64,000 nucleotides of DNA from Carcharhinus amblyrhynchos. Taxonomy: Eukaryota. Below the pieces are notes generated by a model, which did not search any database, was not told where the DNA came from, and saw nothing but the letters and a program-made list of their open reading frames with translations. How positions within the stretch are numbered: position 1 is the first letter of the stretch; each line of letters begins with the position of its first letter. A program made the translations under genes and the position numbers. The stretch spans positions 110,174,001-110,238,000 of the forward strand of contig OZ336870.1 in the NCBI GenBank assembly GCA_965287045.1. The letters run 5' to 3'. Of the stretch, positions 11,640 through 60,784 are shown in pieces.

Positions 11640-12025
11640 AGAATCTCACACACAACCGAGCCCATTAACAAACATGGAATCACACACACCAAACTCATCG
11701 ACAGGTGTGGAATCACTCACACCAAACTCATTGAAGGATGTGGAATCACCCACACCAAACTCATCAACGGATGTGGAATCACCCACACCAAACTCATCGA
11801 CAGACGTGGAATCACACACTCACACCAAACTCATCAACAGATGTGGATTCACCCGCACCAAACTCATCGAAGGACGTGGATTCACCCGCACCAAACTCAT
11901 CGAAGGACGTGGATTCACCCGCACCAAACTCATCGAAGGATTTGGACTCACTCGCACCAAACTCATCGACAAATGTGGAATCACTCACACCGAGCTCATC
12001 GACGGATGTGGAATCACGCACACAC
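11640..12025. repeat. Minisatellite, 33-bp unit, ~11.5 copies
   Basis: Unit GTGGAATCACCCACACCAAACTCATCGACGGAT with variants, including one 4-bp insertion near 11818. It explains the overlapping repetitive ORFs at 11614-12190. Confidence 0.95.
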
Positions 12026-13595
12026 TTGTACTCAATGCTACATCTAATGAAGACGAACATGCCTTATGCCTTATTTATCACCTTGGCCCACTGTGTTGCT
12101 ACTTTTAGAGAACTGTGGACCTGCAAATCCAAATCCCTCTGTATGTTAATATTTCTAAGGGTACTGCCATTTACAGCTTACATTTTATAATGTTCTCATC
12201 TTTGGTTCAAAGCAGATCTTGGAGTATAAATCAGTAAAAAGTTCATTGCAAGTCAATCAGGTCATAACAAAACCATTGGGCTTTCTTTCCAAAGGAATAA
12301 AACTGCATCTAGAGAAGTTATGCCAAATATCAGTCAAGCCATGTCAGTGTGTGCAGTGTGGTCACCATGTTATAAAATGGATGTCGAGACACTGAGGAAA
12401 GGGAAAATAAGACTTCCTAAGGTGATATCAGAACTGCAAGTCTACACTCATTGGGAAAGAATGAACAGGTGAAATCTTTTATCATTTGAAAAGAGGAATC
12501 TGAGGAATGACTTCATGGAGGCTTTCAGATTTTGCAAGGTTTTAGCAGACTTAACACAATGGGAATATTTCCACTTCCAGGAAAGAGCAAACTAAAGGCT
12601 ATTAGTGTAAAACTGACACTCAAATTTAAAAAGAGAATTGAGGAAAACTTCTTTACTCAGAATGTAATGAAAATGTAGAGCAGAGGGGGCAAAATTGTAT
12701 ACTGCTTCCAATGGGTGGGGGCAGGGGGAGGGGGTGTTCTGAGGCTGAGAGTAGGGGAGCCTGCCTGTCCCAATCCAGATGCAACTTCATGTTCCAGGGC
12801 CTTGTGGGGAGGGTAGGGAGCGGGGGTGCGATGGGGAATCTCACCTTTTCACCTGTTTTGTTCTTAAGTGGCTACATAAGGCTGTTATCCTATCCAATCC
12901 CAATTTTTAGGCTGGCAGAGTATGTGTGGGGAGGGTGGGAAATGGATATGTCCACCTGTCCCCATGTCGGGTGGAAAGGGGAGGAGGGCGTCTCACACTG
13001 AATTTCCACCCGTGTCCCCCCATCCCTCAGAGTTTGAATGCCATATCCCTCCCCGGGATATTGGCATTCCAGGTGCCCCTCCTTGCATGGCCTACCCTGA
13101 TGCTATTTTTCACCCCTGCTCTCGACCCACCAGGATGCCCCCGACTTCCCAAAACCAATCCCCTCCCCACCCCTCAAACTTGTGCTAAAAATGTCTACAT
13201 CTTGTGGAAACCAATTTGAATTGAGAGAGAGTTAGTACTTTTGGCTGAGGAAGTTGCTGAAAGTAAAAGGAATCCATGCATACTCGTTCAATTCTAATGG
13301 GAAATCATGGGAGGTTCTAACATGATATTAAAATGTGACGTCTGCACTTAAAAGAACCTGGCAGTCAACAAGCAAAGCCATGATTTTCTGAAAAGATGCA
13401 AATAAAAATTGGCCTTTGAGGGATGAATTTATATTGGAATGTGGCAGAAATATGAAATGTCATCAAACAGGTGAAACACCTTCTGACTGTTTTCATCCAA
13501 AGTGCCATTTTGAGATTTACCTAAATGTGAGAAACACCTCTATTGAGATAGGTAACTTTATTGCCAAGATCTACACTACATCTCAGTCTACAATT

Positions 13596-18497: not shown

Positions 18498-18758
<261 letters not shown>

Positions 18759-23941: not shown

Positions 23942-24005
23942 CCTCCTCCTCAGATCTATGATAAACAGCTTGATGAAAGAGAGCACAGTATAGATGAATG
24001 GAAAG
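23942..24005 (+). CDS. MAPK10: MAPK10/JNK3 coding exon, 64 nt
   Basis: Translates PPPQIYDKQLDEREHSIDEWK(E), with ttttgtag and gtaatg boundaries and consistent phase. Confidence 0.97.
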
Positions 24006-26069: not shown

Positions 26070-26147
26070 AATTAATCTACAAGGAGGTGATGGATTTTGA
26101 GGAGAAAACTAAAAATGGTGTTGTGAAGGGGCAGCCGTCTCCCTCAG
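26070..26147 (+). CDS. MAPK10: MAPK10/JNK3 penultimate coding exon, 78 nt
   Basis: Translates (E)[25 protein letters not shown], with tttgacag and gtaaat boundaries. [16 protein letters not shown] is JNK3-like. Confidence 0.97.
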
Positions 26148-28294
26148 GTAAATCCAATAACCCTGTACACAAATAGTAAGGTTTATTCTCAGATGTTGTT
26201 TTATATACAGCCTATTCAGCCATTTTCCATTGTTTCCATTAGTATATTCCAGAATTGCATTTAATCATCAATTTATAGTTTTCAGCAACTGAAAGGTTAT
26301 TTGTTTTATCATAAACCACCAGAAAAGAACAAAAATGACACTTCAGTAAGCAAGGTAACAGCACAACAAAGAAGAAGATTGGCGCATTGCTCATATTTCT
26401 AACATGGGGCTGAATCTTCTGCTCCATGGTTGGTGATTCTTCCATTTCTGGACACTAGAGGGCAGTAAATAGTTTGCAATGCAGTGATTTCCTTCTCGCA
26501 AACAGGCACAAACGAAGAATTCACATAACTGATGCCGTAAAATATGTCTTTACCAATGTGTTTGAAACATTTTCAGATTTTTAACATTTTTCGCTTGTGT
26601 GATGACTACCTCATCAACTTTTTCACCTTTTTCAGGATGGGGCATTGCTGCAAATGTTGGAAATTTCTGTCCATAAGTAAGCTCCAACTAATTAATAAAT
26701 GAAATGTGCAGGTTAACTGATGGGGTGGAGTTCATTGTTAATTCCAGTGGAAAAGTTGATACTCTCATATCTCCTTTTAGTCTAAAATTAGTTAAACGAG
26801 GAAAATATCATCCTCCCAAGTGCATTACTGATTTAGGGCTCTGACATATAAGGAACATTTTCATTTTCCTGTCCCTTTGCCTTTAAAAGCTTTCTATAAA
26901 TATAACTTAAGCAATCTGGTTTGAAGTTAAATAAATTTTTGCTTTCTTTAGAAATTCATTTTAAACTTGATTATGGTTTTCATGAAGATTAATTTTTAAG
27001 CTATTTTTCTCCTTTTTCAATCATTTTTGTTAGGCTATCAGACCCCTCTGTTATCTTGATTATTTCTTTTCCCCCCTCACTTGATAGGATGGGTTGGTTA
27101 AATGTAATTAACATTTTGAGGTGGAAAGCTTATTAATATTTCCAGTATTCACCTAGTTGATTCTGCCCACTCGCATGCCCACCCTCAGCTGAGAGTCTCC
27201 AGTCTTGCCTGCATTATAGCAAGGAACAGAAACAGATGAATTGGGGTAGACCTTGGCTGGGATTCTCTGACCTCGCCCGCGGCTGGGATTCTCTGGTCCC
27301 GCTGCTGTGAATGAACATTTGGCTGAGTGCCACATTCTCCATTCTCGCTGGCAGCGGCGGTGACATCTGAGAATTCCAGACTTAGTGTGATAAGGCAAAA
27401 CAGGTGTTGGTGAATCGGCAGCCGTTTTATATCTCATCTGATCTTTATTTACATCGAAGTCGATGGAAATCCAAACCAGGTGAGTTGTGTAGCTTGGTGC
27501 TGAATGGATGCCTCTCCTTCGTCTTTGAGCCGACACATTCACTATGCCACCTGCAAAATATTTTTTGCATTAAAGAAAAAGGTCGGTTGAGAGATGAGAT
27601 GGTGGCATGTCTCCTGGAATGGCTTAAACTTCCCAGGCAACCGCTCAAAATCAAAGGGTTTTCCTGAAGTTCCTGATTTAACTTGGGTCTCCTCGTGATG
27701 TTACAGCTGCTAACTCATTAGCAGCATAATACATCGGCACTTGCTGTTTAAAGAATGGCATTCCGAAAATAATTCAAGAAATACCAGAATGTTATGATAG
27801 TTTTTGTGAACATTTAGTTTTCAAAAGCTATCTAATGCTCAGCCACCCTTCTAGGCTCAAATATAAGCTGCTATAAAGTGCAAGATTTATCTAAAATGTA
27901 ACGTCCTTGTTACCAACAGTTCAGGCTGGGGGGAGAATAAAGAGTGCTTACAAGTACATGTTTGCAACAGGATTTGAAAGACCAGACTGCAAGATCAGTG
28001 ACCTACATCACTACACAAGTTAGAGTGCACCAATGGTGAAACAATTACAAATATATACAGTACTTTCATATTTCATTCACAAATTATCATTGAATGTGAT
28101 TGGAGTACAGCAGTATTCTGTTTCTATACAATAAACATATAAAAAGGAAAAGCAAATTGATGAGCAGTTGGCATTTTCATATTTGGGGGGAGAAACAAGA
28201 AGATGTAGTACCACAAGAGATACCACCCCGAGTAAACATCATAACAATATTCACCTTTCACTTCAGGGGTGCATCTTTAAGAGGACATTGTTAA

Positions 28295-28720
28295 CAGAAT
28301 CACAGAAGCGCAGAAGAGACGCTTTGGCCCATCGAGTCCGTACCGATGCATGGAAGGTCCTGGCTTGCCTACCTAATCCTTTTTGCCAGCACTTGGCCTA
28401 TAGTCTTGAATGTTATGGTGTGCCAAATAGTCATCCATGTACTTTTTAAAGGATGTGAGGCATCCCGCCTCCACCACCATCCCAGGCAGTGCATTCCAGA
28501 CCATCATCAGCCTCTGGGTAAAAAGGTTTTTCTTCAAATCTCCCCTAAACTTCCCACCCCTCACTTTTTATTTATGTCCCTTCATGATTGACTTTTCAAC
28601 TAAGAGGAACAGCCGCTCCTTATCTATTCTGTCCATGCCCCTCATAATCTTGAGCACCTCACTCAAGTCACCTTTCAGACTTCTCTAATCCAAAAAAAAA
28701 CCATGCCAAGCAGCATCCTG
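28295..28720 (-). mobile_element. CR1 LINE 3' fragment
   Basis: ORF 28373-28564 (-) MRGGKFRGDLKKNLFTQRLMMVWNALPGMVVEA is the CR1 ORF2 C-terminus, followed by a 3' UTR tail. Confidence 0.85.
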
Positions 28721-29199
28721 GTTTAAACCAAGAGAACCAAATGTAATCTTACTCATTACGTTCTCTGAGCAGGGATCCATGCTCAAAGAGGGAAGCAATT
28801 TCACCTCATCTCAATCCTAAATGACCAACTACTTATCCTGAGACTGTGAGCCCTAACTCTCGACTATCCTACCAGGGGAAATAGCTTCTTGGCATCAATG
28901 CTGCCGAGCCCATTCATAATTTTATACATTTCAATGAGATATCCACTCACTCTTCTCAACACCGGAGAAACTAGGCTCATTCCACTCCATCTCTCCTCTT
29001 TGAACAGTCCTGAGTTAATCCAGTCACCATCAACTTCATTGCTTTTTGAAAAAGTCGCTGACAGATCTTTCCTGAACTCAGCTTGCTATATTTCACAGTG
29101 GGGTGTTGTTGAGTTCAGGAATGCTCAGAGTGGAAGATGAAGAATTTTTCTTCTATTGCCAGGAGACTGCATAATGATACCCCCGTTCTGCTGAAGTGC

Positions 29200-30470
29200 C
29201 ACATGTCTAGAAGAATGTCACTCAGGGGAAATGGACTGACAAATGGCAGGTGAAATTTAATAAAGGGAAGTGTGATGTTGTGAGAAGAAGAGAGGCAATG
29301 TAAGCTAAATGATCCAATTTTTAAGGGAATGCTGGATAAATCCTTGATGGCAGGGCAAAAACCACTAAAATTATACAAGGTGCTGAGCTTTATAAATGAA
29401 GTAATATAGCACAAAAACAAGAAAGCTGTGCTAAAAATTTATAAATCATTGAAGTTGTCAACTGAATTATTGCATTCAATTCTCTTTAGAAAGGATAGCA
29501 AGGTCTTGGAGAGGTTGTGGAAAAGATTTACTAGAAAAGGTATAGGCTCTTTTTAAAGTGTACCTTCATGCACAATTTCCTTCTGTTTAGGTAATAGTGG
29601 GATGGTGGTGGTAAAATTATTGCACTAATTATCAGCCACATCATGAACGTTCCTTCCATGATCAACAAGTTTTGGCATGGGACTTGAACTCTGAGCATCT
29701 GATCCAGAGGTAGGGATGCTACCACTGAAACCAGAAACCTCCAGAGATGGAGGACTTCAGTTATCATAGAATCCTAGAATCCCTATGGTGCAAAAGGAAG
29801 CCATTTGGCCCATCTAGCCTGCACTGACAACAATCCCATCAGGCCCTATCTACAAAATGCACTGCAGCAATTCATCAAAGATCCTTAGACAGCATGTATT
29901 TATCCTGCTAATTCCTCTGACATGAAGGGGCAATTTAGTATGGCCAACCCACCTAATCTGTACATCTTTGGAGTGTGGGGGGAAACCCACGCAGACAGGG
30001 GGAGAATATGCAAACTGCACAAAGATAGTCACCCAAGGCTGGAATTGAACCCAGGTCCCTGGCACTATGAGGCAGCAGTGTTTAACCACTACCATTGTGC
30101 CACCCTCCATCAGGGAGGATGTTATGAGGAGTCACTAAAGAAGTTGTCTTACTTGGAGCAGCAATGGTTAAGGAGTGAGTTAGTACAGCTGTTATTTGGC
30201 AGCTTGATCTAGATAGGGGGAAACTGTTTCCACTAACAGGAGGAACAGTGACCTAAACTGACAGCGACAGGCACACAGATTTTAAATAATTGACAAAAAA
30301 ACATTGAAAATGAGGAAAATATTTTTTACTAAGGGAGTTATTATTATATGGACTGCATAGCATGAGCAGGAGAACTATAGGGGAGGAGTACGGAAGTAAG
30401 ACTAAATGAAAAGTTTTTCAAACAGCTTGATGGATCAAATGGCCTCTGTCATTGCTGTGTGATTCCATAA
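29200..30470 (+). mobile_element. Decayed CR1 LINE interrupted by SINEs
   Basis: tggactgacaaatggcaggtgaaatttaat and ttggagaggttgtggaaaagatttactag motifs. It resumes after the SINE at ~30106 with gttatgaggag and has a CR1 tail near 30430-30470. Confidence 0.65.
29763..30105 (-). mobile_element. V-SINE (HE1-like)
   Basis: tRNA head, V domain and CR1 tail on the minus strand. Confidence 0.88.
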
Positions 30471-31269
30471 TTCTAAGTATTCTAAAATTGTATCTACAAG
30501 GATTTATATACAGATATGTACATGAAGCTATTGTACATTTTTAGCCCATGGTGCTTGCAGAAGCAGTCAATTGGTATAGTGAGATTTTTTTTAGGATGAT
30601 TGAGCTTGTGCTGGGAACAATATGAGATTAAGGACTGAAGCAGTTTGTTCTTGATCACTGCAGGGTCCAGTTTACTCTAGAAACTAGAAGATCCTCTTAC
30701 CCGTTAAAAACCATTACATTGCGAATGTAAATCAGAAGAAACATTTATTATTGCCTGCTTTATACTAACACAAAATCAACATAAGCCTCAAGATTTTAGA
30801 GTAAAATATATTTTTTAAAAAGGGCCTTTCTGAAATCCTGAAGACGTCACTTACTGTGTGTGGAGGTAACTCCTCAATCAGTGACTTTTACTTTCTGTTG
30901 ATCTTTTTAACATTTGCTTTGATTTCCCCTAAAGTTAGTGGAACTCTAATAAGTGCAGTAATGGAATTTTTCTGAGAGTTGCTTTTAGTTCCACTGTAAC
31001 AAGTTAACCTAGGGTCAACCAACATCACTAAAACAGATTTCAACTGGATCTCTAGAGTAGAATTATGATGTTCTCAAAAAATAAATTAATTAGCTTTTGA
31101 TCCAGTTTGTTTATAATAAATGACATTGGGTCTCCAGCAGAAATAAATAAAAGTGTTAGTACCTATACAGCTAACAATTCAATGATATTTCTTATGGTGG
31201 CTATTTAATTTGAACAGAACAACTCTATGTATCGTACTGTTCAGTTTAGCCCAATTTTCTAGTATTGAC

Positions 31270-31652
31270 CTGTGGCTCAGGTGGTCTTGCCTCTGAGTCA
31301 GAAGGGTATGGATTCAGTTCCTACTCCAGAATCTTGAGCATAAAATTCTTGGTTGACCACTCCAGTATTGAGGGAATACTGCACTGGCGGAAGTTGCAGA
31401 TTTTAGAATGAGGCCCCATTTGTGTGCAGGTGGATGTAAAAAATACAGCTGGGCAGTTATCCCAGCGTCCGTAGCCAATTTTTATTCCTCGACCAACATC
31501 TCTTTTATAAAAAAAATTGCTGATCTGGTCATTATCACAATGCTGTTTGTGGGATCTTGCTGTGTATAAACTGGCTGTTGCATTTCCAATATTACTTCCA
31601 AATATCAGCTACAAAATGCTTTGGAATGTGCTGAAGTCGTGAAAGGGGCTAC
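31270..31652 (+). mobile_element. Deu-domain SINE (SacSINE1/AmnSINE1-like)
   Basis: tRNA-like head (gcctctgagtcagaagg), body aggtggatgtaaaa...gatctggtcattatcacaatgctgtttgtgggatcttgctgtg and tail gctttggaatgtgctgaagtcgtgaaagg. Confidence 0.75.
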
Positions 31653-31934
31653 ATTCCCTTCATCCCTTCCTCTTTTTTCTTCTTCCCATCAAGAAGTTTA
31701 GAATTTGCAGTGTCAAACACTGAAGAATTTCACTCACTGTTTGTTCCTATTTAAATATCTTGTTACTGATGAATTTTTATGAATTATTTTTGTGTCCATG
31801 GTTCAGGGAAATTTCATCATTTCTGTACTGCATCTGAGAACCAGTTGATGAATTAGTGGTCTTTTTTGTGTTACAATTCTGAGCATATCTGAACAGGTCA
31901 CGCATGACATGTTACAATATAGGTAACATACAAC

Positions 31935-32705
31935 ATTGTTTTTTTTAGCGCCTTTTTTGACCTCCGAGCAACTCAAAACATTTTTCAGCCCAATAAATAC
32001 CTTTGAAGTTTAGTTACTTTTGTAACGTAGGGAAACATAGCCACCAATGTGTACACAGACAAATATATGAATTAGGAGCGAAAGTAGGTCACTGAGCCCT
32101 TTGAGCCTGCTATACCAACACAGCAAGTGTTTTTTATTCATTCATGGGACATGGGGGTCGCTGACTAAATATATATTTCCAAATCAGGATGGTTAGAGAC
32201 TGGACGGGAACTTGCAGGTATCGGTGTTTCAATGTATCCACTGCCCTTGTCCTTCCAGAAGGACGTGGTCATGGGTTTGGAAGGTGCCGTCTAAGGATCT
32301 TTGAAGAATTGCTGCAGTGCATTTTGTAGATAGTACACACTGCTGCTGCCGCTGGTGGAGGGAGTGGAGGTTTATAGATGTGGTGCCAGTCAAGATCACA
32401 AACAGCAACCAGAGAATCTGTTTTACTGATGTTTGTTGAGGATTAAATATTGGCCAGGTGAGCATGGAAAACTTCCCTATTCTTCTTCTTCAAATAGAGC
32501 CGTAGGAATTTTAGGTCCACCTGCGAAGGCAGATGGAGTTTCAGTTTCATTCCTCATCTGAAAGACTGCACCTCAGAGTGCAGCACTCCCTCAGTACGGC
32601 ACTGAAGCGTAGGCTGGATTATGCACCCAAGTGTCTGAAATGGAACTCGAATGCGTGACTTTCTAACGCCGGAGATGGGAGTGTTATCACTGAGCCTCAG
32701 CTAGC
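31935..32705 (-). mobile_element. Deu-domain SINE, antisense copy split by nested LINE 3' fragments (~32060-32395)
   Basis: Reverse-complement match to 31270-31652 in two pieces (32395-32705 and 31935-32060). Confidence 0.65.
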
Positions 32706-34971
32706 ATCTATTTAATCCATACAGCCAAATAGAAAACTTAGCAAACATTAATATAAACGATATTGAAAGCTTAGGATCGTGCTTCAAATAAATGTACCAA
32801 CAGTTACAGAAAATGATGAAAAGGTTGGAAAAGCAGTTTAAGTTAAGAAAACAACTATTTTGATCAGTTTGGTACTCAGTCTATAAAATGGGTAATAGCA
32901 GATTTTTTTGAGCCGTCCCTGTGTTAATGGCAGGAAATAATCATGTACCGTTCTATCTTGGTACTTTCCAGATGTTGCATCAATACATGATTTTGGGATA
33001 TTTTTCAGTCTGAATTGGACACAGTTTTGTGAAACTAAAGGTTGATGATCATTGATTTGGTATGGAGTGTATGAGGAGACCTCAGAGATTGGCTGGGGAG
33101 AGTGGGGGGCACAGATGAAACTTTTTGAACTTGCCTTTCAAAAGGTTTCTGAATCTAGACTGATTCTGACTCCTCTGAGGATCCATGATCCATGTGTCAT
33201 GAAGAAATTAGCTTGACTCCATGAAGGTTACAGAGTTTAGGAGATGCCCATGTTACAATGGAGGTAACCAGGTCAGAGTCCAGAGTGTAGGCTCGCTAAC
33301 CACACCGGCAAAAATTGCCAGTGCTAGAAATATGAGCAGAAATCTGGGAAGTGGGTCCTACCTGCCATTTTTAAAATGTGCTGGAATTGCCTGAGCTCCA
33401 CAAAAAATCTGGCCCACAATATAATTTTCCTAGTATAATTTTATGTAGAGGATTATCATAGAATATGATGGGTTCGATTTTGGTCTTCCAGAGTGAGGCT
33501 AAATGGAGGTAAGTTGATTGAGAGCAATGTCTTCCCACAGGGTTTGGCAGAGTATCTTTATTATTTTCTGGTTCCCCTCATTTAGGAAATTAGACACAAT
33601 TGTAGATTTTTAAGGGCCTTCAACAGCTTAAAAGGCAAGTTTTTTTTTGTGTGGCCAAAAAAAAGGGGAATAACATTTTGATGCTACAAGGCAAAGTTTT
33701 TAGACACAGCTGAGAGATGCTGGTAAAGGGAAATACTACTCCCCTTGGATGATGAGTTGGTGAACAAGACATCTGGCACATATGAATGTGGCCTGTTTCA
33801 TCTCAGTCCCTGACGCAGTGCAGAGTGAAATGTTATGATCTTATCAAGACTGCCAGGTAAGACTCCCATTACATCTCTTGTTCTCTCTGTCAGATCCTAC
33901 TTTGGTCTTCTCTAACGTTTTTCCCATGATTGTCCGTGGGTCAATAGGGAAGACTTGTTGTACTTCCTTCTTGCTTTTACCCTCAAAATATTCTGTGGCT
34001 CCCAGAACTGCTTTGCCCTCTTGGCCACGCATATTGCTTCTTTCTATCATTATTCACTCTGAACTGACTAATACACACAAGGGTTGAAAACCCATGCCCA
34101 AAGCACATATTTACCTTCTTCCAGTCTTCTTGCTCACAATAGGGACAGATTGGCAAACATTCTTCAACCCCTCTCCCCTCATGGAAGTGGGTGCCATTCA
34201 CATAAGAAGTTGTCCATCCATCAACATTAGAGATAGCAGGGCTAAAGGCCTGTCACAGCAAGACTTATTGCTTTTATATATTAGCTGGTTTGCTTCATAT
34301 CTGAGATGTCTTATTTATCTCAGAACAATGTGTAGATGATACCAGATCTTAATCAATAACATTTATTTATAGTACTTTTAAAATATCTCAGTACTCACAT
34401 TGTTATTTGTGCACAGATGGACTCAGCTCAGGTCTTACTGGAACTTTGTCTGGTGTCAGTACTTAACTCTCTTGCTTCACTCTTACACTTAAGCAATCAA
34501 GTACAATCACATAGCTCAGACAACTGACTAACATAATCAAACTATTGGCATCTTTCTTCCCTCTTGTGTTTCTATGTTTTCAGTCACACTCTTGCCAAAC
34601 TCCTGAAGCTCATAACTTGCTGTGGCATGGTGCTTTCCATTGAAACTACAATCTAACCATTGTTCCTCTCCCTTTATTTCTGAGCCAATCATGTTATGTC
34701 CAAATTAATATTCAAGCTTGTGCAGAATTATAATGGTTGCTTTTATTTCAGATTCTAGGAGCATCTTTGCAAAGAGGTACTTAATAATCAGCAATATGCA
34801 CAGATCTGGAGCGTAATAGCTTATTACTTTTTATGTTCAACTAATAAAATGCAACTACAATGTTAATCAAATCAAAGGACTTGGATGCTAGTGCCAAACA
34901 GGATGCAAATGAATACCTAGCTCACAGTGCACCTTGCTGTTAATTTGCCCATGAACTCCACTAGAAACTGT

Positions 34972-35196
34972 GATGTGGAGATGCTGGCTTTGGACTGGGG
35001 TGAGCACAGTAAGAAGCCTCACAACATCAGGTTAAAGTTCAACAGGTTTATTTCGTAACATGAGCTTTCAGAGCACTGCCCTTTCATTAGGTGAGTCCAC
35101 ATGGTCACTCACCTGATGAAGGAGCAGTGCTCCGAAAGCTCGTACTACCAAATTAAACCATTTGGACTTTAACCTAGTTTTGTGAGACTTCTTACT
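34972..35196. mobile_element. Penelope-type inverted terminal-repeat element (palindrome 35008-35196)
   Basis: agtaagaagcctcacaac...aggtgagt, a 10-nt spacer, then actcacct...gtgagacttcttact. A second copy lies at 63158-63374. Confidence 0.85.
35109..35145 (+). ncRNA. Minimal type I hammerhead ribozyme-like motif
   Basis: tcac-CTGATGA-a-GGAGC(agt)GCTCC-GAA-AGCT-C-gtac has both catalytic core boxes, a 5-bp stem II and a palindromic AGCT stem III. Stem I is partly mismatched. Confidence 0.7.
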
Positions 35197-35249
35197 TTTC
35201 ACCAGAAATATCATCCTTTGTGAATTCGATAGTAAATCAGGATATTATG

Positions 35250-35356
35250 GATGCCAGAAATCTGAAACAAAAACAGAAAGTGCTAACAAATCAGCCAGCA
35301 TCTGTGGAGGGAGCACTGACAAGTTAATATTTCAGGTGTAAACCCTTAAACAGAAT
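35250..35356 (-). mobile_element. Penelope-type terminal repeat fragment (degenerate hammerhead)
   Basis: Matches the 13596-13714 family. The minus strand reads ctgtttaa-GGGT(ttac)ACCT-GAAATATT-AAC, with the core box decayed. Confidence 0.55.
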
Positions 35357-35438
35357 TGACTTGCATTATGGATTCACTGAGCAAGTACAAAGGAGCAGAA
35401 GCAACCAAATAGCAAGGGTATGTCGACTGTTAGGCAGC

Positions 35439-35772
35439 TCATAGAATCACAGAATTCCTACAGTGCAGAAGGAGGCCATTCCGCTCAGTGAGTCTGCATC
35501 AACTCTCTGACAGTGCATCTTACCCAAGCTGTATCCCCATAACACCATGTATTTACCTTACTAATGCCCCTAACCTTGGGATACTAAGGAGCAATTTAAC
35601 ATGGCCAATCTATCTAACTTGTACAATTTTGTACTGTGGGAGGAAACCAGAGCACCCAGAGGAAACCCATGCAGACACGAGGTAGAATGTGCAAACTCCA
35701 AGCCTGGAATTAAGCTTGAATCCTTGGAGCTGTGAGACAGCAGTGCTACCTACTGTACCACCATGCTGCCCT
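35439..35772 (-). mobile_element. V-SINE (HE1-like)
   Basis: tRNA head, V domain and CR1 tail on the minus strand. Confidence 0.88.
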
Positions 35773-37699
35773 CATGTCTTAGATTTACTGAAGAGGGCAG
35801 TGATATAGAAATCATTTCTATGGACTAGCAGTTGCTGAAGACAGTGGCACACAGAGAGATTCAAACACATGTTGCAAATTATGGTTCAGTCCTGTACCCA
35901 CTTGTGTTCTCATCTGTCACCTCAACACTCTGCAGTGAACTACAGAATACATATTTATCTCAGTACCTGTTGCATGAGAGCCCACAGTCCCTATCCCCTG
36001 CTACAATTATAATTAGGACCATCTGTCAGGGATACTTATATTAGAGCAATACAGAATCTGGCTGTTCCTTCAACTCTGCCTGAGGCTGGCTAGATCAAAT
36101 GAATTGAGGCTTTGTGCAGATCAATGATTTCCTAGAGTCTGCTCCCCTGTACCTCAGTAGGAATGCTGTGCTGTAAATTAAGGTCAATTGTATAGTGGGA
36201 GTGGTAAAGGAAGCAGTCTTTTTCGATGACAGCACCTGTATACCTTTGCAGCCCCCCCTCCCTGAATAAATTTCCCATTCTGATGTCAGCAAACTGGGCC
36301 AGATTGCCCGATCAGGGATCCAGTTATTGCAGTCTGAAGCTTCCCCTTTCAGGGCTGAACTCCTACAGATTGGAGGTCACTAACATTTTTGGAGCCCTGG
36401 AATGACCATGAAAACTTAATCCTCCAATGATGTTGGCACTAAGGATCATCTTAAAATGTGTAAAAGAACTTTGCACAGCCCAAAATTGTGCAGGCCTTGG
36501 TGCAAACCATTCAACCCAGAATGGTATTTGAGACTATTCCTTTAGGGGCAGGTGACTTTGCAATGTTTGGTGACATAAATAGCAACTTTGAATATGGTAT
36601 TTGGCTTGTAGGTTGGAAAGAGTAAAACAGCTGTTGGGAATGATTGGGAAGCAGGGATCTTCAATGAGCTGCTGTCAGACAGATCTGGCTGGGGATAACT
36701 ATTGAGACACATTCTGCTTCTTTATAATTTCCTAAGTCCTACAACATTCTCATTCATCATGCAGCAAGTCACCCTCCAATGGTAGCTCCATGCTGTTGCC
36801 CTCATTGCAGAGACACATGCAGCACATACTGAACAGAAGGGACTCCCCTTATGGACCACATTGGAGGAAGCCTCTTCTCTTTCCTCTCTCCTCACTCTGC
36901 CCTCTTTCCTCTGATTGATCCTACACAAATACCACAATATATTCTGTTGTTGCTATGCTTGAAGGACATTGCTTGGACACCATGAAGCAGTCTTGTATTA
37001 CGTTACAAAGAAGTCCTTATTAACAATGCTGATCTATGTACATATTTACATTAGGTACACACTGTTACTTATCTCTAGATTGACCTTAGCTTTAGATCAT
37101 GTGCCATCATCATGTAGGTGGCATTGTATGCAATCTTGTTAACCCTTTATGTTCCAGATCATTCTGTTATACTCTTCTCTCGTCGCTTTTCTCCTCCACC
37201 TAAATTTCTGTGTGGTGATCCCAGTAATCTTTTCTAGTTGACCCATAGATCTGACATGTAAAGTTCTGTTGCAGAGAGTGGTTTCCTAAGAGATGTCATC
37301 AACTAGCTGTGCAGCCAATAGCCCTCATCTCCAAGTAACCAGGCTTCCTCTTGCGGTGTAATGGACAAAGAATGGGAATCGATATTGCTATTCTTTTGCT
37401 GTCATTGTGTCAAAATCTTGGAGCTCCCTACCTAACATCACACCTCCCCTCTACCACAAAGACTGCAACAGTTCAAGAAGCTGGCACAATGGCACTTTAA
37501 GGGCAATTAGGGAAATAAATTCTTTGAGCCTGAATTTCCCACATTCCGTGGATTAAAAATAAAATTGCTTCCTTGACATTTCTAAATGCTTTAATAGCTC
37601 TCTTGAAAGATTAGAGCATAGCCTCCACTGTGCAGAAGGGACATTCCCATTACCTGTTAGAACAGCTCACAGAGGACAACCTGAAACTTTCAGATATCA

Positions 37700-38436
37700 T
37701 GTAACGTTAGCCTAGACCTTAAGTTTTACATTTGAACTTGGCATTGGTGAGCATAAGGTATTTCACTCCAGGTATGATTCAAGTGACCCACTAAGAAGGT
37801 TTTATCAAACAAAGTTTATTTAAGAACAGTTAGAATCTAACAAAGAAAAAGCATAACTTTTACAAATTACTAGATTTAAACATGACATAGTATAACTCCT
37901 AACAGCTAGTTATCTCTGTTATTCCAATGTAAAGAAATATACCATAGACATGTACCTTTCTTTGGAATTAGCACAAAAACAAGTACGCTCACGTGATGTT
38001 CAGCTTTCTAACACTTCTGGACAGTGAACACGACAGCCATTTTCAGAAAAGGATATATCCTTCAAACAGTACAACTGCAGAGAAGTAAACTTAATATCAG
38101 GCAAATTCCAATACAGCAGTGCCTAAACAGGAAAAGACACTGTTGTTTCTCTCAGCTTCAGGCTGCTTCTGAAAATGCAACTAAAAACTGGAATGCTTTG
38201 TGAAAAGTGGCTGTGATCAACCACATGATAACCTGTCAATCACCCCCAAGGTCCACTTAGTAATCCTGGGGAGCATTAAAACCACAGAACGCTGCATTAG
38301 TTCAGATTAAAATCAACATGATATCAATTATACAGCTTTAGTAACAATAAAGGACATGGGCTACAGACAACATAGTGCTGACAAAACATCCCGCAAAGAA
38401 ACATGATTAAAATACATTTCTTAAAAGTACATTACC
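37700..38436 (-). mobile_element. Probable solo LTR
   Basis: Starts TGTAAC and ends ATTACC (imperfect inverted end). Flanked by ATCA on both sides (37696-37699, 38437-38440). AATAAA on the minus strand at 37815-37820. Confidence 0.55.
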
Positions 38437-38988
38437 ATCATATATTGTACAGAAAATCAACAACTCTTGCATTTGCATCATGTTTGTTGGCTGGAATGTC
38501 ACCAGTCACTGAAAAGTGAATTTTCAAATGTGTCAGCAGAAGGTCACCACACCAGAGGATTGATGGGGTTGATTAGCTTGCCAGGGTAACTGAGTGTGCC
38601 TATGCACAAGTGACGCAAAATATTCTTTGATGCGGTTTTGTCCCTTAAATCAGAAACAGCCACTCAGAAAAATACAAGTTTTGAAAGAATTGAACACCTT
38701 TATCTGTATCTTTCTCTTCTGGATAGTGGCCTAGACCAGCTGAAGAAGGAATTCTCACACTGCTACCCTATGGAATATGATTGGCCAATATTTGGTGTCA
38801 ATATAAAGCTAAAACCATTTAGCATCATCACTAGTATGAAAACATGCTTTTGGCAGGAAATGCAACAGGAGCTCAATTTTTTTAAAAAGTGGGCTCTGTA
38901 GTGTGCACATCCTTTAATAAAGAGGAAAGAATGTAGTCCTTATGAAACTGTGTTCCCGGATTTTATGGCTCTACTGTTAATTTCTCAG

Positions 38989-39005
38989 CACAGGTGCAGC
39001 AGTGA
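38989..39005 (+). CDS. MAPK10: MAPK10/JNK3 terminal exon, proximal acceptor (short p46-type C-terminus AQVQQ*)
   Basis: tttctcag|CACAG: using the upstream AG adds 5 nt, giving (G)CA CAG GTG CAG CAG TGA, the known JNK short-isoform ending. Confidence 0.92.
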
Positions 39006-51820: not shown

Positions 51821-53129
51821 AATGAGTACAGTAGTTGCTACTGCCCGGTTCAGCTGTAAACAGCACCACCCTTTCTATTTCAGTGTGAAAACTCAACATA
51901 TAATGGGAGTACTCAAAATCAGGAGATGCAGCTCAGGAACATCACAGCCTGATGGCCGAAGGCTGCATGTTGTTGGTGGGGGAATGGTGTGATGGGCAGG
52001 TGGTATATATTGACACCGTGCTTTGGCAAGCTTGGGTTATCATGCGGGAGTCAGAGGTGGGGAGTGGGATCGTTTCAGAAGGATTGAGGATGGTGCTGGG
52101 GATCGGGAGCTGGGCGTTCACAGGGTCTGGTCCAGCGGGAGAGGACAGGACGAGATGGATACTCACCCTTGCTGCCCAAACGAGGGCGTTCATTTTCTTG
52201 CAGCACTGGACGCCGCTCCTTTGTGTCAGTGTATAGGTGCTGCAGCCACTACATCCTAGGCTGCTGTCCTGGCCCCTGGGTCATCTGGATTTTGGGGGAG
52301 TGAGATGGCCTTCCTCTCCGCCACAGTATCCAGCAGCTATCCTTACTCTCCCTACACTCACTCGGCTGCCATCCTCCTGGCATAACTGAACGTGTGATCA
52401 TCATTAGTGTTTAAATGAAGCTTCCTCTTGTTAATGGCACACAGCTGTGGCCACTCGGGCTGAGTCCTGCACCGAGAGCCTCCATAACAGCGTCTCCCAC
52501 ATGAAGGCTTTTTCAGCGTACTAACTGTTGGAAGATTATGATGCTAAACACACCAGAGAGGCTGACGCGGATCACTCTGGTTTTCTCGGAGTTAGGACGC
52601 TTAGAAATGTTGGGGGAAAATTTCGCCGTGTGTCTGGAGCATCAGGGGATGTTAGGCTCCTCACTAAGCTGTAAGTTTGTAGGCCACAGACTGAGCAGAA
52701 AATCTTTCACTTTTCCTCTGCTTGCTTTCATTTGCTACAGAGAAAAAACATAACCTTTTGATATACTGCCCCCAGGTTTCCACTTCTAAGTCAAACAATT
52801 CAAACTTTTCAATTAAAGACATCTTTAAGTGGCACATGTACCTTGCTTTTTGATAGTTTCAATGCTGAACTCTCCTCCCTCTCTCACGCACACAGCAATT
52901 CCTGAAATCTAACGAAAGGTTTTCCTTATTGCCAGTACAGAACTGAACACGTAAGTACTGTCCACTCCTCCCTGGTTCCACCTGGATATCCTCCCCGATC
53001 CAGATTGTGCCAATATTTTAATTGTACCCAATTGGCTTGATGTTCTGCGCTGCCTCGCCATAAGGTCCGATCACGTGGCCGTCAGGGATCGATTCCCATC
53101 TCACTTAGCAGGACCGCGCTACCACAGGT

Positions 53130-53425
53130 AGAGACCTTTCCCCTTAATAGAGTGGTCAATAACCAGGGGGCTTTGTAAGAAGCAGGAGAATTAGAATGGA
53201 TTTGACCGAAACCTTTTTCACCCAGAGAGTAGTGGGAACCTGGAGTTCCGCCTGAAACGTGGTGGAAACGGGAATTCTCAGAGCATTTGAGATGTATTTA
53301 GATGAAACACCAAAGCACACAAAACCATGTACCAAGTGCTGGAAAATGGGATTAAAATAGATAGGAGTTTGGTGGTCGGCACAGACATGATAAACTGGAG
53401 GGCCAATTTCTGTGCTGTAAAACTC
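53130..53425 (+). mobile_element. CR1 LINE 3' fragment
   Basis: tttttcacccagagagtagtgggaacctgg and ccaagtgctggaaaatgggatta motifs. Confidence 0.7.
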
Positions 53426-53969
53426 TACCTGTCACTCTAAAGACTGCATGTAGAATTTCAGCTGTTAAACAAGACTTTCTGCCCTTCCTAAATCTCGCAT
53501 CTCCTGCACGCAGTTCAGGTGATGCAAAGCTCCCAACATCAGAGCCACCTCCACTGTGTGACTGGGTTCGGATGGCTGCTTCCTTCCCATGCTAGAATCC
53601 CGACATCTTCTGGACCTTCTATTGGGTGCCATGACCTTACCAATAAATTCAGCCCATGTCCTTTGGAAGGGTGAAGCAGCTTAATTCACATCTCCTTTGA
53701 TAGTTTCTTATGAGCTTTGATCAAAGTTATATTTAATTAACATCAATCCACTCTAGGATTCATAAAAGCATGCATAATATCCACTTGCATAATCTACCAC
53801 GGGTTCAAAACTTAGTGAAGGATTTGTTGAAAATTAATCTTACAGTTTTGGATTGCTAGTGTTACTTAGTAACACCATAAATGTGAAATCTGCTTTTCAA
53901 AGGAATTAAAGAATGTCAAGGCACAGCAGAAAAGAGTAAAACTTTGTTAGGCTATCAGGTAAAAGAGCG

Positions 53970-54250
53970 AAAGAACAAAGAAAAGTACAGCACAGGAACA
54001 GGCCCTCCAGCTGTCAAGCCTGTGCCAATCATGATCCCCTGATTAAACTAAAACAAACCTTCTGCCCTTACTCGGGCTGTATCCCACTATTCCCTCCCTA
54101 TTCATGTACGCATCCAGATGCCTCTTAAATGTTGCTAATGTGCCTGCTTCTGTCACCTCCTCTGGCAGTGCATTCTAGGCACACACCACTCTCTGCATGA
54201 AAAACTTCCTCTGCACATCTCCCTTAAACTTTCTCCCTCTCACCTTGAAC
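53970..54250 (-). mobile_element. CR1 LINE 3' fragment
   Basis: The reverse complement reads ggagaaagtttaagggagatgtgcagaggaagtttttcatgcagagagtggtg...cctgttcctgtgctgtacttttctttgttcttt. Confidence 0.8.
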
Positions 54251-54814
54251 TGGTAAAGAGCAAAGAAAAGTAAATCAATTGGTGCATAAACAGAGGAGTT
54301 GATGCCATGCTTATAGAAGCATTATATAGACACTGAAATGATCCATTGTGGCAGGCAGCACATTCTGCATCAGAAGTGAACATAAGAAATAGGAGCAGGA
54401 GTAGGCCATCTAGCCCTTCGAGCCTGCCCCGCCATTCAACAAGTGTACTGACTAAATCTTGAAAAGGTTGTAGACATTCAGGGTTCATGACTGTAATGAA
54501 TATTAGGCCTTTAGCACATGAACAAGGATTTCAGGGCCCCTTCCTAAAATGGGGTCCTTGAATGCAGCCTGCACAAGAACTGCTTTGTTCAAAATGACCA
54601 AGTCATTCCCTGAAGGCTTCTCCCAAACAAGTTGAAAGAAAATTAGCTGAATGCAGAGACATGAGGAGTTAGAGTGTTTCTTCTGGTTCCACATTAGTCC
54701 CAAAGTCCATTTCCAACTCCTGGTCAACAGCTGCTTTCCAATTCCTTCCCCACATCTCTCCCTGAGCATACCTGCTGGCCACTTCCATGGGCATCTTATA
54801 TCTACCTGTCTACT

Positions 54815-54910
54815 GAGCACCGATAAAGAATCATCCTGACTCGAAACATTGGCTCTCTCTCCACAGATACTGTCAGACCTGCAATTTTCTGTTTTTGTTT
54901 CAGTATCCAC
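54815..54910 (+). mobile_element. Penelope-type terminal repeat fragment (degenerate hammerhead)
   Basis: ccgataaa-gaatc(atcct)gactc-GAAACATT then ctctctccacagatactgtcagacctgc...tttctgtttttgtttcag. Confidence 0.55.
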
Positions 54911-56072
54911 AACAACTTGTTTTTATCTCCAGTGAGCTGCCTGGGAACGTGCAGCAATAAATACTTGAAGAAGAAAAATATTAAAGGATATAGAAAAAAA
55001 AAATGGGATTTTGATCATAAAATCCAACCTGGAGCTTGCACAGATTGATCAGCCAATGTCCTCCTGTGCAGAGATTTCTATGATTTTATTTGACTTTAAT
55101 TTGTAGTCCAGCCTCTTGAACCTTGCGTCTTGATTTTGATGTGATGGATATACAACCCTCATGCATTACAAATTGGGGCTTATGTTGAATCGAGGCAGGA
55201 GGAACCCTTTAAAATGAATGTTTTGCCAGAAATAAAATACTATTTATCGAAACATTCTGCACTCAAGCTAAATTGTTGGTAAAATCAGTGCTTGAGAAAA
55301 TGGCTTTCCTGCAAAATTTCCCCATTTCCATGTATTGGCATTAACAATAAATACAACCTGTGTATACAGAAAGATTGGATGTGGGGCTTGAAATCTTGTT
55401 TGGCTCTGACACGTTAAATTACATACTGGAAAAAAGCAAGACACTTACAAAAAGGTTTAGGTAATTCATTTGTTATACTTTTTTTATAAAATATGTACAC
55501 TTTTTTGGTCATGAACAAGTAAAATGGCACATGAAGCATCGGCACGCTAGTCAATATTTTAACTTTATATATCCCGTCGCCCATTTCATAACTTTTAAAT
55601 TCTTCAGTATTCTCTTGTCCCCAGCGAGAAAGGGGGAGTGACAATAAAGAATTACAAAACAGGCCAACTGTACCACAATGCTAAAAAATAGCTTGTTAAG
55701 TGCAAGTTAAAAAGCCTTGATAAAAAGCTAGATTGCAACACAATAATATTAACTTTAGCAGTTTAAATACGAGGCTTTCATTAAACGTTTCCTTTTTTCA
55801 GTTTGACATACATTTGTTGATGGGTGCCATTGATTTTGTTTTCATTTAAGCTATATACACAACCAGCTGTAACACTTAACAGTAATATAATTACATGGAG
55901 CTTATAGGTTAGAATAAGATGGTAAGTATACAATTAAAATACTGGCAAGTACAGTTGAAATGTACGTTTTCCTTCTAAGTTTTGAATTTCAATGAGTGCT
56001 ATCGCCAGTCAGGTGACCAGTCACCTGGCTTTTCTCCCCCCACCCCCATCCATTGTCCTGATCTCTCGATCT

Positions 56073-56316
56073 TCACTGTATCCAGATGGTATTACTTCTA
56101 TCTGGTCTTCGTGTCTCCACAGTCAGATCACCAAACGTCGAGAAAAATTGCTCCATCTCTTTTTGCAACATTTCATTGCGTTTCTCAGCATCCTCCCGTG
56201 CACGCTCTGTGTTCCTCATCTTTATCTCCACCATGGTATATTTCTTCCTTTCCTGGTCAAGTTCCTCATGAAGTGTCATTACCTCAGACTCTAGCTCAAT
56301 GTTTCTCTGTTCCAAA
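56073..56316 (-). CDS. ARHGAP24: ARHGAP24 (FilGAP) last coding exon, C-terminal coiled coil, 244 nt
   Basis: Translates [80 protein letters not shown]. The acceptor ttgttgcag ends at 56317. The NTIWIQ end and tail-to-tail position with MAPK10 match human ARHGAP24. Confidence 0.96.
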
Positions 56317-58414
56317 CTGCAACAAGAATGACAGGGAAATGATCAAATACTCATGCTCATTTTGATAGATGCAACTATTAGATTGAAAGTTGACCACATT
56401 CCTCTTGCAAAGACTCAAGTTTATCAATGTTATTTAAACAAGATATTTCTGTTTACACCAAAATGACATACATGATGGATAGATAGGATAATGGCAGCAA
56501 ACTATACGAGAAGGAGTTAGAATTCATCTTTCTGCCTGGGTGTGAATCTTGTTATAAAGCCACGCTTTATAAAAATGACATTATGAAATGATTAACTAGA
56601 AACCATGGAATTGTTTTCTAAGAAAAGGCTAATGCCACATTTCAGTGACTTCAAACTGCAATTCCTGAGATGGCTAAAAGTTTGCATCATTGTACACAAT
56701 ACTATCTATTAAGGTGGAGCCAACCTGTGTAGAAAACACAAGCAGAGACAATAACCTTGAAGAAGTGTCAATGAGATCATCCTAATTCTTTCACAGAACA
56801 CCCCAGACATCACCTGACTTGGCATTATAAGTAATCACCTCAGACAATGAACTTGATCTGATCTACCCCTAATCTAATCAAACTGAAACCACCTGCCTGG
56901 AATACACCATTCATGACTATATTTGGGTCACAGGTCAGCTAACTCTTTTCATTTTTAAGAAACTGTTTGCTGCAGACCAGAGGCAGAAGCAGAAAAGACC
57001 CCTGTGTGGGCCTCACTTCCTCTCACTCTCTACCTTTCAAGCTTGAACCTGTCTACTGTTTGACTATCCAAGTGCCAAGAGATTTTAAAGAACTCAACAC
57101 AGCAGGGTCCACCTGTAACTTTAACGTCCTCAGAAAAAACACCAAGCTCAGCCTGGGTCTACCCAAGCCATCAACTTACACAAAGCATATAATATAGATT
57201 TTAAAATGCCACTTAATGTAACCTCCCACTCTGTACCTATTGTATTGGAGTGAATATACATGCAAAAGTTGCAGCACTTACATTATTTTTCTTAGACAGA
57301 GTTAAGAACAATAAATACTACTTTCTTTTTGTATGCATGTCTCTTGCAGTTGCAGCATGTAAACAATTAAAAAATAACTGAATGCATATCCTTTCTAAAC
57401 TCCTTTTATCACGAGTGGTCGGAAATGAGAGGAGCCATTCCACCTCTACTCACCTGATTGTCACAGCCAACTGATATCCAATCCAATTTGATTTAAATGG
57501 TTAAAGAACTAAAATGGGGTTGTTTCTGTAATATATGTACACTTAAAGACAGACAGGGAGAAAGAGAGAGACAGGAAGAGCTAATCTTATATAGCATTTC
57601 TCAAAGATTAGCTAGTGTTCTTTCAGATCACTCCTCAGGTATTGCCTATGGAAGTAAGCTGAATAGATCCTGATGTGAATCATATTTCGATATCCCTTGG
57701 GTGCAGGAGGTTTTCACGTTGCTTGTAAATTTCTGTCTCTATAAGCCTTTTTTCTCTCATTTTACTACTTTGAAAGATAACATCTCAATTATATAGGACA
57801 TTCTCAAAACAAGCTTGATGGTAGAATTTACTTTGAAGGATTTTTGGTTATTAACATGACTGGTTTCACTCGGTTCTGGTGTCACTGGACACGTAATAAA
57901 AAAGATCAATTTTGGAATGATTTCATTTGATGCTTCACAGCTTGGTAGGAATTTTAAGCTCATGGTAATATCTATAAAAGGTAATGAGAATGGGTTTCAG
58001 TATAGAAGCAGATTTTGTTTTATTCTCCCCGAGTATCAGACTATGCTGATTGGAAATGCTTGGGGGAATTCCATTCTGAGCTATCAATGAGATTTAAGAT
58101 TAACATTTGCAAGGCAAAAAGGAGATTTCAGCAAAACAATTAAAAGTTTCATGGTCCGTGCTCTCTAACCTGATAGCAAAGAAAAACAAAATAGCAATTG
58201 CTTTGCTGACGAACACATACATGATGTTGAGAACTCATTCTTAAATTGGACAGAAGCCTAGGTGAAGGTAACAAATGGCCTGATGCTATTACTGAAATCA
58301 AACAATCTCAGAACAGTAATGGTACATCTGGATTTCGCATTAGCAGAAGCCTGGAATAATCACTGGAGAATGTGGAGCATTAAGATCAGCAGTGAGGAGG
58401 CTGATGATGATAAT

Positions 58415-60784
58415 TGTGCTAGCATGGCCCCTTTAAAGGGGCAATTCTTAAGAGCCACATGATTGGGCTGGACACTATGAAGAGGCAGCAGAGGAAGTCA
58501 AGCTAATCTGACACAAGAACGTGTGTCCTGGGTCGAGATGGAAGCCAGTTGAAGCCAGGGAGGAGTGGAGAGTAGTTGTGTGTTCAGTTCTGTCAGATCC
58601 TTGTTTGTATGTAGTCATTTATCATTGGTAGTAAGCCCTTTATAACTTTAAGCCACAACATGTGGCCTTCGAAGTTATTATAGCAGCGGCGAGGGACAAC
58701 TTTCGTTAGCCATTAGGGAACGGAGTGTGCAGCTAGAGGGGGAGGAGAGTTGAATGTTGAAACTGTCACGAAGTAAGGCGCATAAAGATGCCTATAATTG
58801 GAAAAATTGAATTATTTGACCCAGAAGTGGAAACCTGGGGACAGTATATTGAAAGGTTGTGTTTTTTTTTGTAGCAAATAAAATCACAGCAGAGGAAAAG
58901 CGAAAGGTTATACTGCCCACAGTCTGTGTCCCACAAACTTACAGTTTAGCGAGGAGTCTAATGTCTTCTGATACCCCAGACACTAGTCTTTTGACAAGAT
59001 AGTCAAATTGGTCAAAAATCATTTTAACCTCCGACTGCTGATCATTATGTTGCAAAAAAGTTTCGTTCAGCTGTCCGGAAGCCAGGGGAGGCAGTTTCAG
59101 ACTTTGTGGTCATATTGGAAGGTTAGCAAAGCACTGCAAATTCGGTCCAGTTTTAGGAGAAGTGTTAAAAGAGTTTTTGGTCTGTGGTATAAATGGCCTC
59201 ATCATGCAGAAGTTGTTACTGGCTGACACCAAAATCTCTTTAGAAAAAGCTGTGGATTTGGCCCAGATGACTGAACGCACTGAGTAGGGTGTAAAGAAGT
59301 ACAAGGCATGCCCAATGGGGTGAACCATTTGTGCTGGAATACTGCTGGTGTGAGGAATAGCTCAAATGCAGGCACAGCAGAGCCTGAGTAAGGGGGTGCA
59401 GGACTGAAGCTGGAAGCCTGATTTTGATAGAGGGGAGAAGCTTGCTGATGCCAAATTTATGTATGTTACAGTTGTAATTGGAAAGGTCATTTATACGTAT
59501 GGTGCATATGGATGGTATTTCACAATAATACCAAAACAAGTTAGGTTGCCAATTACTACTGCAAGGTTACAGAAGTGGGCTCAACTACGTACAGTTACAC
59601 ATTCCCGTACCACCCAAGGACACAAATATCAAATGTGGAAGCATTCTTTGCCACAGAGTCATCATCACCGGTCCCACAGGAAATAGTGTTGGCGCTGCAC
59701 CTGATAGAGACTTTGCCGATCTCAGCTAAACACAGCCTCCTAAGCATTAGCAGAATGTTGTACAAATGTTCAAATCATTGATGAAGAAACACATTAATAG
59801 GCCTCTAGCTCTACGTATAGCCAGTTTCTTGTTGTCATGTAACACCATGCCAAATGCAATCACAGGGGTCAATACCAGCTGAACTACTAATGGGATGCCA
59901 TTTATGGACACAGCTGGATATGATATTCTCAGATTTGGTGGGGAGGGTGAAAGCTAGAGAAGTCTCCCAGGAAGAAAATCATAACTTACAAAAGAAAAGA
60001 GAGCTTTTAAAGTTTATGATTTAATTCTGGTCAGAAACTTTGCAGCAGGGCTGATATGGGTGGCTGGAATAATTGTGGAAAGAACAGGACCTGTTTTCTA
60101 TGTTGTAGAAATATAATGTTGTCCAGTCAAAAAACACAGAGCATTTGAGGGAGAGAGCTAGGCCTGACAGAAGCGATCAAGATGATCCCTGCAGGAGATT
60201 TAGATTCAGTGGTGGATATAGAGATCCCACTTGTAAATGTGGAACTGAAGCAACCAGTAGTTTCTGTCACTGAGGAGACAACAGCTACAGAGGAGGATCT
60301 CAACTCCAGATTGATGAATTTACCTTTCCCAACTATCTGACAAGATACATCATTTCCCCAAGAGTATAAAACAGAATTGAAATGTTCTATCAGGTCCAGA
60401 AGTCCCCAGACCAACTGAGCATGTGATGAGATTTCCTTGAGTATTTCTGATGTCTTGTTGAACTGTGCATGCCTGTGTTTAATGATGTTCCTTTTGTTTC
60501 ATCCACAGTTGAACTCAGGAGTTAGGGAGGAGGAGAGAGTGTGGTAGTGTGACCCCTTTAAGGAGTCAATTCTGAGGGCCACATGATAATACCTTTGGAG
60601 TTGCAGCACTGGATGCCAAGCCAATCAGGTGCAAGGGCATGTATCCTGAGTCCGGGAGGATCCTCAGCTGGAACCAAGGGAGGAGTGAAGAAGTCGTATG
60701 TTCAGTTCCATCTGACTCTTTATATTTATCGTTAATAAACCCTTTATAACTTTAAGCCACCCTGAGTTGCCTCTGAAGTTATTA
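58415..60784 (+). mobile_element. Internally deleted Gypsy/Ty3 LTR retrotransposon relic (LTRs ~58415-58680 and ~60540-60784)
   Basis: Diverged direct repeats (ccctttaa..gccacatgat..agggaggagtg..ccctttataactttaagccac..gaagttatta). PBS-like tagcagcggcgagg at 58681. gag start MPIIGKIELFDPEVETWGQYIERL at 58788. Integrase remnants PAELLMG..L.TQLD and LVRNF..W..GII.ERTGPV. Polypurine tract agggaggaggagagag before the 3' LTR. Confidence 0.88.

Follow-up and report, generated by a model that had tools for sequence, protein, structure and literature searches.

The analysed window, a 64,000-nucleotide stretch of the Carcharhinus amblyrhynchos genome (contig OZ336870.1), carries MAPK10 on its plus strand. 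An exon at 18553-18677 matched JNK3 328-376 (E 3e-22) and the last coding exon, from 38994, matched JNK3 419-464 (E 9e-19). The exons between them (23942-24005 and 26070-26147) were chosen by eye from an enumeration of splice sites. The palindrome at 34972-35196 was found to lie in the last intron (26148-38993), since the preceding coding exon ends at 26147 and the last one begins at 38994. This agrees with the placement in the sequence-only reading from which the work started. The same reading had described the element as sense within the gene. The motif of the right arm is indeed on the gene strand, but this is uninformative, as a palindrome always has one sense arm. Ahead of the last exon there are two AG acceptors 5 nt apart (38985-38994), and the shark protein ends one residue short of human JNK3. 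We take the paired acceptors to resemble the alternative acceptor behind the short and long JNK isoforms. Exon-like ORFs on the minus strand at 56073-56342 and 60127-60498 belong to a convergent gene, presumably ARHGAP24.

The inverted repeat consists of a left arm on the minus strand (35008-35096) and a right arm on the plus strand (35107-35196). The arms are 82-83% complementary and are separated by a 10-nt centre (35097-35106), the locus-specific junction between them, so the repeat of about 190 bp described earlier was recovered. Its predicted RNA fold reached -122 kcal/mol (z -12.8), and none of 200 shuffled sequences folded as well. Next to the left arm, at 34972-35007, we identified an unpaired 36-nt tail that was absent from the first description; it extends the minus-strand arm and in full elements ends at the ORF start codon. 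Both arms are 5'-truncated pLTR ends of a Penelope-like element (PLE), one tailed and one short-ended. They differ from their subfamily consensus by 11% and 8%, respectively, against a mean of 9.5% among arms, and the decay of this stump is thus average for the subfamily. A possible TSD flanks the element at 34959-34967 and 35200-35208 (plus strand); it is a weak candidate with 8 of 9 positions matching, and its score of 6 was also reached by 19% of controls.

The same old subfamily is represented in the window by another two-armed copy at approximately 63157-63370, which is followed by a LINE-like fragment. The window also holds other long inverted repeats, at 6736-7351 (199-nt arms, 95%) and at 52630-58983 (a multi-block pair about 6 kb apart), which are possibly ends of DNA transposons or DIRS-type elements. 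A 33-bp tandem array of about 13 units, with several open frames, occupies 11622-12054.

The hammerhead motif and its decay

In the right arm the hammerhead spans 35110-35144 on the plus strand. It comprises stem I (CAC), the CUGAUGA box at 35113-35119, an extra A at 35120, a 5-bp stem II (35121-35125 with 35129-35133), GAAA at 35134-35137, the palindromic AGCU at 35137-35140 and C17 at 35141. Boxes, stems and the predicted cut after C35141 were found exactly where they had first been read. The core (CUGANGA, GAAA and UH, with H not G) is intact, consistent with a predicted hammerhead of the minimal type I. The decayed mirror copy proposed for the other strand was also present, at 35059-35096 with C3 at 35090. 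It carries G5>A (35088), G10.1>A, C11.1>U and G1.1>A, and fails the core test at G5A. This change abolishes hammerhead catalysis, and the left-arm motif is likely inactive.

The bare core pattern occurred six times in the window against 2.85 expected, and three of the six were accounted for by the right arm and the palindrome near 63157-63370. Support for the motif therefore rests on the stems and the family, not on the boxes. An Rfam search over the window gave nothing at gathering score, only sub-threshold hits to miRNA hairpins (E up to 10).

Two features had been regarded as deviations from a hammerhead. The extra A was invariant in a sample of 100 young arms, picked by anchors outside the motif (counts here are sequences, not events), and is a listed feature of PLE hammerheads in the consulted part of PMC4209133; it is no deviation. 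The weakness of stem I is real in one respect, as one further pair has been lost here by decay, leaving two contiguous pairs: position 35144 is A, where 93% of arms carry G. The stem was short to begin with, however, at 3-4 bp in this subfamily, and it is 6 bp in most young copies.

It had also been anticipated that the family would conserve the core above background. In the young arms mismatches amounted to 1.5% in the core (mostly CpG) and 2.3% in the flanks, compared with 23% in stem II and its loop; the flanks are as constant as the core, so this comparison does not tell the two apart. In old arms the changes acquired after insertion were 6.2% in the core and 6.0% in the flanks, showing equal decay of both once the element is in place. 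Besides stem II and the loop, the variable sites in young arms were N7 and H17. H17 was U in 77 and A in 22 of the 100 young arms and never G, and it was C in 69% of old arms. One stem II pair varied in a compensatory manner (A-U 54, G-C 45, G-U 1), possibly through one event, and at least 4 bp were kept in 13 of 16 recurrent stem II variants, in a table that required an intact core. This covariation is better evidence for the hammerhead fold than the conservation of the core.

The full palindrome had a predicted energy of -109.5 kcal/mol, as compared to -16.8 and -15.8 for the single arms, and the long hairpin was favoured over separate arms by about 77 kcal/mol. The suggestion that the hairpin sequesters the ribozyme is consistent with these predictions. 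Sequestration is unnecessary to explain why the host intron tolerates the element, because a single minimal hammerhead without cleavage in vitro is described in the same part of PMC4209133, and because a palindrome offers a sense arm in either orientation of a host gene.

We judge it extremely improbable that in the MAPK10 intron the hammerhead is still active, or has been co-opted, and alters splicing or RNA levels. On the plus strand nothing is missing from the core, stem II or the cleavage triplet, and the motif is sense in the pre-mRNA. Stem I, however, has only two pairs, there is no sense partner nearby, and the predicted hairpin competes by the margin given above. A predicted co-fold of two right arms paired through stem II and not through stem III (AGCU), and the divergence of the arm (8%) is ordinary. 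We regard the hammerhead at this locus as a known type of passenger that is decaying and likely inactive.

An abundant family and its coding element

Copy number, which the sequence-only reading had left to a genome search, was determined over 2.9 Gb. Two disjoint exact 24/25-mers from the arm gave 34,862 and 28,337 matches, with 0 for controls, corresponding to at least 63,000 arms in the genome. Back-to-back core pairs within 30 nt were detected at 3,276 loci or more, against 5 for the control. A DNA search returned 4,379 first-look candidates, and the 40 that were scored gave 79 matches, which means that nearly every scored locus matched on both strands.

The proposed PLE origin was borne out, as the arm sequence is the pLTR of a full element with RT and GIY-YIG domains in the same genome. 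In the window's older subfamily, the sequence beyond the tail continues into an ATG and ORF (L045), and upstream of the ribozyme there is a UTR of about 215 nt followed by the 3' end of the ORF (L040 and L066). The layout of the stumps was also seen in several palindromes of kilobase size that carry partial ORFs on each strand. The idea of a distinct, non-autonomous element without an ORF was not supported: elsewhere the arm runs directly into both ends of an ORF for RT and GIY-YIG, and the centres of the palindromes differ between loci.

A protein search, in which 150 of 30,284 first-look candidates were scored, supplied the autonomous partner that had been sought. The locus, L097, reads in order: TSD, inverted tailed pLTR, hammerhead, 893-aa ORF, pLTR, a second, frameshifted copy, short-ended pLTR and TSD. 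Its pLTRs contain three direct hammerheads about 3 kb apart and one inverted hammerhead, and the locus is thus a partial tandem. The 893-aa protein matched RVT_1 (E 4e-10) and GIY-YIG (E 4e-5, above the Pfam cut-off), and its translation has a C-x4-C-x2-C linker ahead of the endonuclease. A CX2-5CxxC linker defines Neptune and Nematis in the consulted sections of PMC8557442, and by this definition the predicted protein places the element in one of these two groups. With its intact ORF in a tandem dimer (L097:1768-4518, G000:C23) and identical pLTR hammerheads, L097 is a candidate for a recently active copy.

Other searches were less informative. Pfam gave no match in five short ORF pieces, and a PDB sequence search gave none for a 917-aa frame. 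Searching the genome with a generic GIY-YIG family produced three hits and was set aside, the matched stretches being misaligned with the PLE endonuclease region. Four sets of putative-RNA contigs from other organisms covered the pLTR; neither a transcript end or start nor a clear splice junction was seen in them, and they speak neither for nor against expression. The family may already be catalogued in Repbase.

Joining of arms and their 5' ends

We collected 91 head-to-head pairs from loci that several searches had supplied; 21 duplicate or overlapping loci were left out. In 87 of the 91 a short arm was combined with a tailed arm, the short end lying about 90-100 nt past C3 and the tailed end about 36 nt further, which substantiates the inverted terminal repeat layout proposed for the MAPK10 locus. 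A TSD score of at least 8 was obtained for 60 of the 91 pairs, in comparison to 1.75% of 400 shuffled pairings, and the TSDs were mostly 11-15 bp. Inspection of the pairs by eye also indicated that TSD ends often have 2-5 nt in common with the two 3' ends of the element, which suggests microhomology at both priming sites. Loci with identical flanks recurred in G000:C1 at 0.1-5 Mb (for example L120, L126, L145 and L151), which points to segmental duplications in the contig arm.

The centres were distinct in 47 of 50 consecutive back-to-back loci, and the repeated ones fell in different subfamilies. Private changes were common to both near-identical arms of young loci (L235 and L248). At the subfamily sites +32 and +34, examined in 51 old pairs, discordance was 0.20 and 0.10 within loci but 0.58 and 0.53 between loci. 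Together, the agreement within loci and the distinct centres indicate that the arms of a locus derive from one source and that the junction is made anew each time, so that each palindrome was likely built at insertion. At L248 (G000:C1:44050760-44051560) the core change A15.1>C is common to both arms, which suggests insertion of an RNA whose ribozyme was probably dead.

These data bear on an alternative in which PLE proteins mobilise, as one transcribed unit, a MITE- or SINE-like palindrome without autonomy. Thousands of palindromes of similar size would fit such an element, as would the few recurring centres (3 of 50 and 2 of 50) and the ability of pLTRs to act in trans noted in the part of PMC3846280 consulted. 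The uniqueness of nearly all centres and the different subfamilies of the recurrent ones argue against it. Sizes, moreover, are continuous from about 100 bp to several kb, ORF-bearing palindromes have the same build, and the arm variants equal those of ORF-bearing copies. We consider copying as a unit quite improbable.

A closer competitor keeps the PLE origin and has the mirror arm arise when a single cDNA, or an antisense template, snaps back or primes itself. Such a process would also yield arms of the same source, including the private changes shared by young arms at L235 and L248; centres often have microhomology or short palindromes, and self-priming is proposed in PMC3846280 (same part). 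It accounts less well for the fixed position of both 3' ends: in the 87 pairs described above the mirror arm reaches a second fixed site, with a TSD, and a short-ended cDNA cannot template a tailed arm. In addition, both strands were extended by the anole protein in vitro, according to the sections of PMC11167929 used here. Snap-back is accordingly a real but lesser possibility, and priming from both nicks is the reading we prefer.

One site did not follow the general pattern of agreement. At the stem II site +10 (35123 and 35080 in the window) A was found 67 and G 30 times, outside a CpG context, and the partner base was T in 98%. The arms were discordant at +10 in 21 of 49 old pairs, among them the MAPK10 locus, but at +34 in 5 of 51 (p 2e-4), and in old-subfamily arms discordance was as frequent within loci as between them. 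This mismatch speaks against a strictly single template, which does not explain it. Editing of RNA on separate templates or a mutation hotspot are possible causes; that the arms were sometimes copied from two different RNA molecules appears unlikely to us. The variant showed no significant association with the tailed arm (12 vs 6, p 0.24).

The positions at which arms begin were analysed in arms picked by a downstream anchor only, among the first 100 matches listed per pattern, in one arm of contig C1. An older or mixed set comprised 117 arms (13 duplicate loci dropped) and a young set 93 arms (3 duplicates dropped). Among older or mixed arms reaching C3, 39 of 80 stopped in the next 20 nt, compared with 12 of 92 and 9 of 41 in neighbouring intervals. 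For young arms this was 22 of 74, against 8 of 82 and, beyond, 1 of 52. The 5' ends are thus concentrated 1-20 nt upstream of the ribozyme (p 6e-7 and 2e-5, respectively). A pile-up at the scissile bond was discarded, as only one of the 93 young arms begins within 2 nt of it. Eight of the 117 older or mixed arms started at +25 to +34, where the profile has an indel and two of the rows are duplicates, which makes this set uninformative on the point. Splicing of the template, with a joint at the AG at -16/-15, was also considered and dropped, since no shared upstream exon was visible by eye. A TATA-like stretch at -36 and an Inr-like sequence near -6 are visible as candidate motifs.

The simplest reading of the pile-up is run-off at an RNA 5' end located 1-20 nt upstream of an uncleaved ribozyme. 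Arm 5' ends upstream of the ribozyme and not at its cut suggest uncleaved templates. As the ends are spread over 20 nt, folding of the cDNA could be an alternative cause. The reading agrees with the same sections of PMC11167929, in which ribozyme mutants insert normally and reads ending at the cut site are absent. Neither this pile-up nor, for genomic PLE copies, priming from both nicks was mentioned in the searched passages of the literature.

A model for insertion and its relation to known PLEs

We are highly confident that the MAPK10 locus is the decayed, 5'-truncated end of an EN-bearing PLE, likely a single insertion primed from both nicks, with the hammerhead as a likely inert passenger. 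In the proposed course of events, the PLE protein would cut both strands of the target DNA about 13 bp apart, and reverse transcription would be primed from two positions inside the RNA that lie about 36 nt from each other. These positions would be the counterpart of the pair of ends that the anole PLE showed in vitro. Synthesis of both cDNAs would then come to a halt, in most cases 1-20 nt upstream of the ribozyme core, most likely because the template is an uncleaved transcript with its start there, and the cDNAs would be joined head to head, often via microhomology. We infer priming from both nicks and the transcription start from genomic footprints only. In the MAPK10 pre-mRNA the arms are predicted to form the long hairpin, and the sole motif with an intact core would have neither a dimer partner nor a full stem I.

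The locus itself is ordinary: it is a real but dead repeat, and its layout has already been described for PLEs. Head-to-head inverted pLTRs with a tail are reported in the consulted parts of PMC8557442 and PMC3846280. In the anole PLE, according to the sections of PMC11167929 cited above, both strands are cut and are extended from two RNA-internal positions flanking the tail, the tail ends are the RT start sites and the hammerhead is dispensable. The short and tailed arms, the TSDs and the common source of the arms match this layout and the in vitro behaviour. As in EN+ PLE insertions (PMC8557442, Fig. 2; Adineta Pen2a, PMC3846280, both in part), we observed a head-to-head inverted 5'-truncated copy, a one-sided tail of 30-40 bp, a TSD and partial tandems. 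Unlike in those insertions, the arms here are about 90-125 nt long, the ORF is gone and the stump form exists at thousands of loci.

The motif resembles the minimal hammerheads that metazoan PLEs carry (Cervera and De la Pena 2014, PMC4209133, in the part consulted) in its core boxes, the extra nucleotide between 9 and 10.1, the G10.1-C11.1 pair, the palindromic 15.2-16.2 and a variable stem II. It differs in having shorter stems (stem II 4-5 bp, stem I 3-6 bp) and cores only 7-32 nt apart; pairs of PLE hammerheads 100-700 bp apart on opposite strands are noted in that study. Its results and discussion, in the portion consulted, include no shark family among PLE hammerheads.

With PAc, the Anolis Poseidon element (Frangieh et al. 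2024, PMC11167929, in part), the shark PLE shares a pair of element ends that lie downstream of the hammerhead and delimit the tail, and inserts that include the uncleaved ribozyme. PAc belongs to the Penelope/Poseidon clade and its ORF begins inside the ribozyme, according to the same sections, whereas in the shark PLE the ATG follows the tail, about 130 nt past C3, and the protein has a CX2-5CxxC linker. The stumps also resemble non-LTR retrozymes (PMC7229834; bioRxiv 10.64898/2026.07.22.740005; parts of both) in lacking an ORF, carrying a type I hammerhead and deriving from PLEs. Retrozymes, in these sources, are head-to-tail tandems with ribozymes on the same strand, whereas the MAPK10 stump is head-to-head. 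An assignment as a non-LTR retrozyme was therefore rejected: head-to-tail repeats with at least two same-strand hammerheads are characteristic, and here there is one motif per strand.

How PLEs integrate and what their hammerhead does are described as open questions in the consulted parts of PMC8557442 and PMC11167929. We give about even chances to a broader proposal, that the stumps are a genome-wide record of PLE integration, with priming on both strands of the target at two sites in the 5' leader of the element's own uncleaved mRNA, with run-off 1-20 nt upstream, and that the ribozyme does not make the template 5' end though its fold is maintained. The MAPK10 locus alone is of little importance, and its value lies in the clues that the family gives to the PLE mechanism. 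Young insertions in the tens of thousands, whose ends can be read, together with an intact 893-aa source copy, would allow a direct test of whether template 5' ends lie upstream of the ribozyme and not at its cut.
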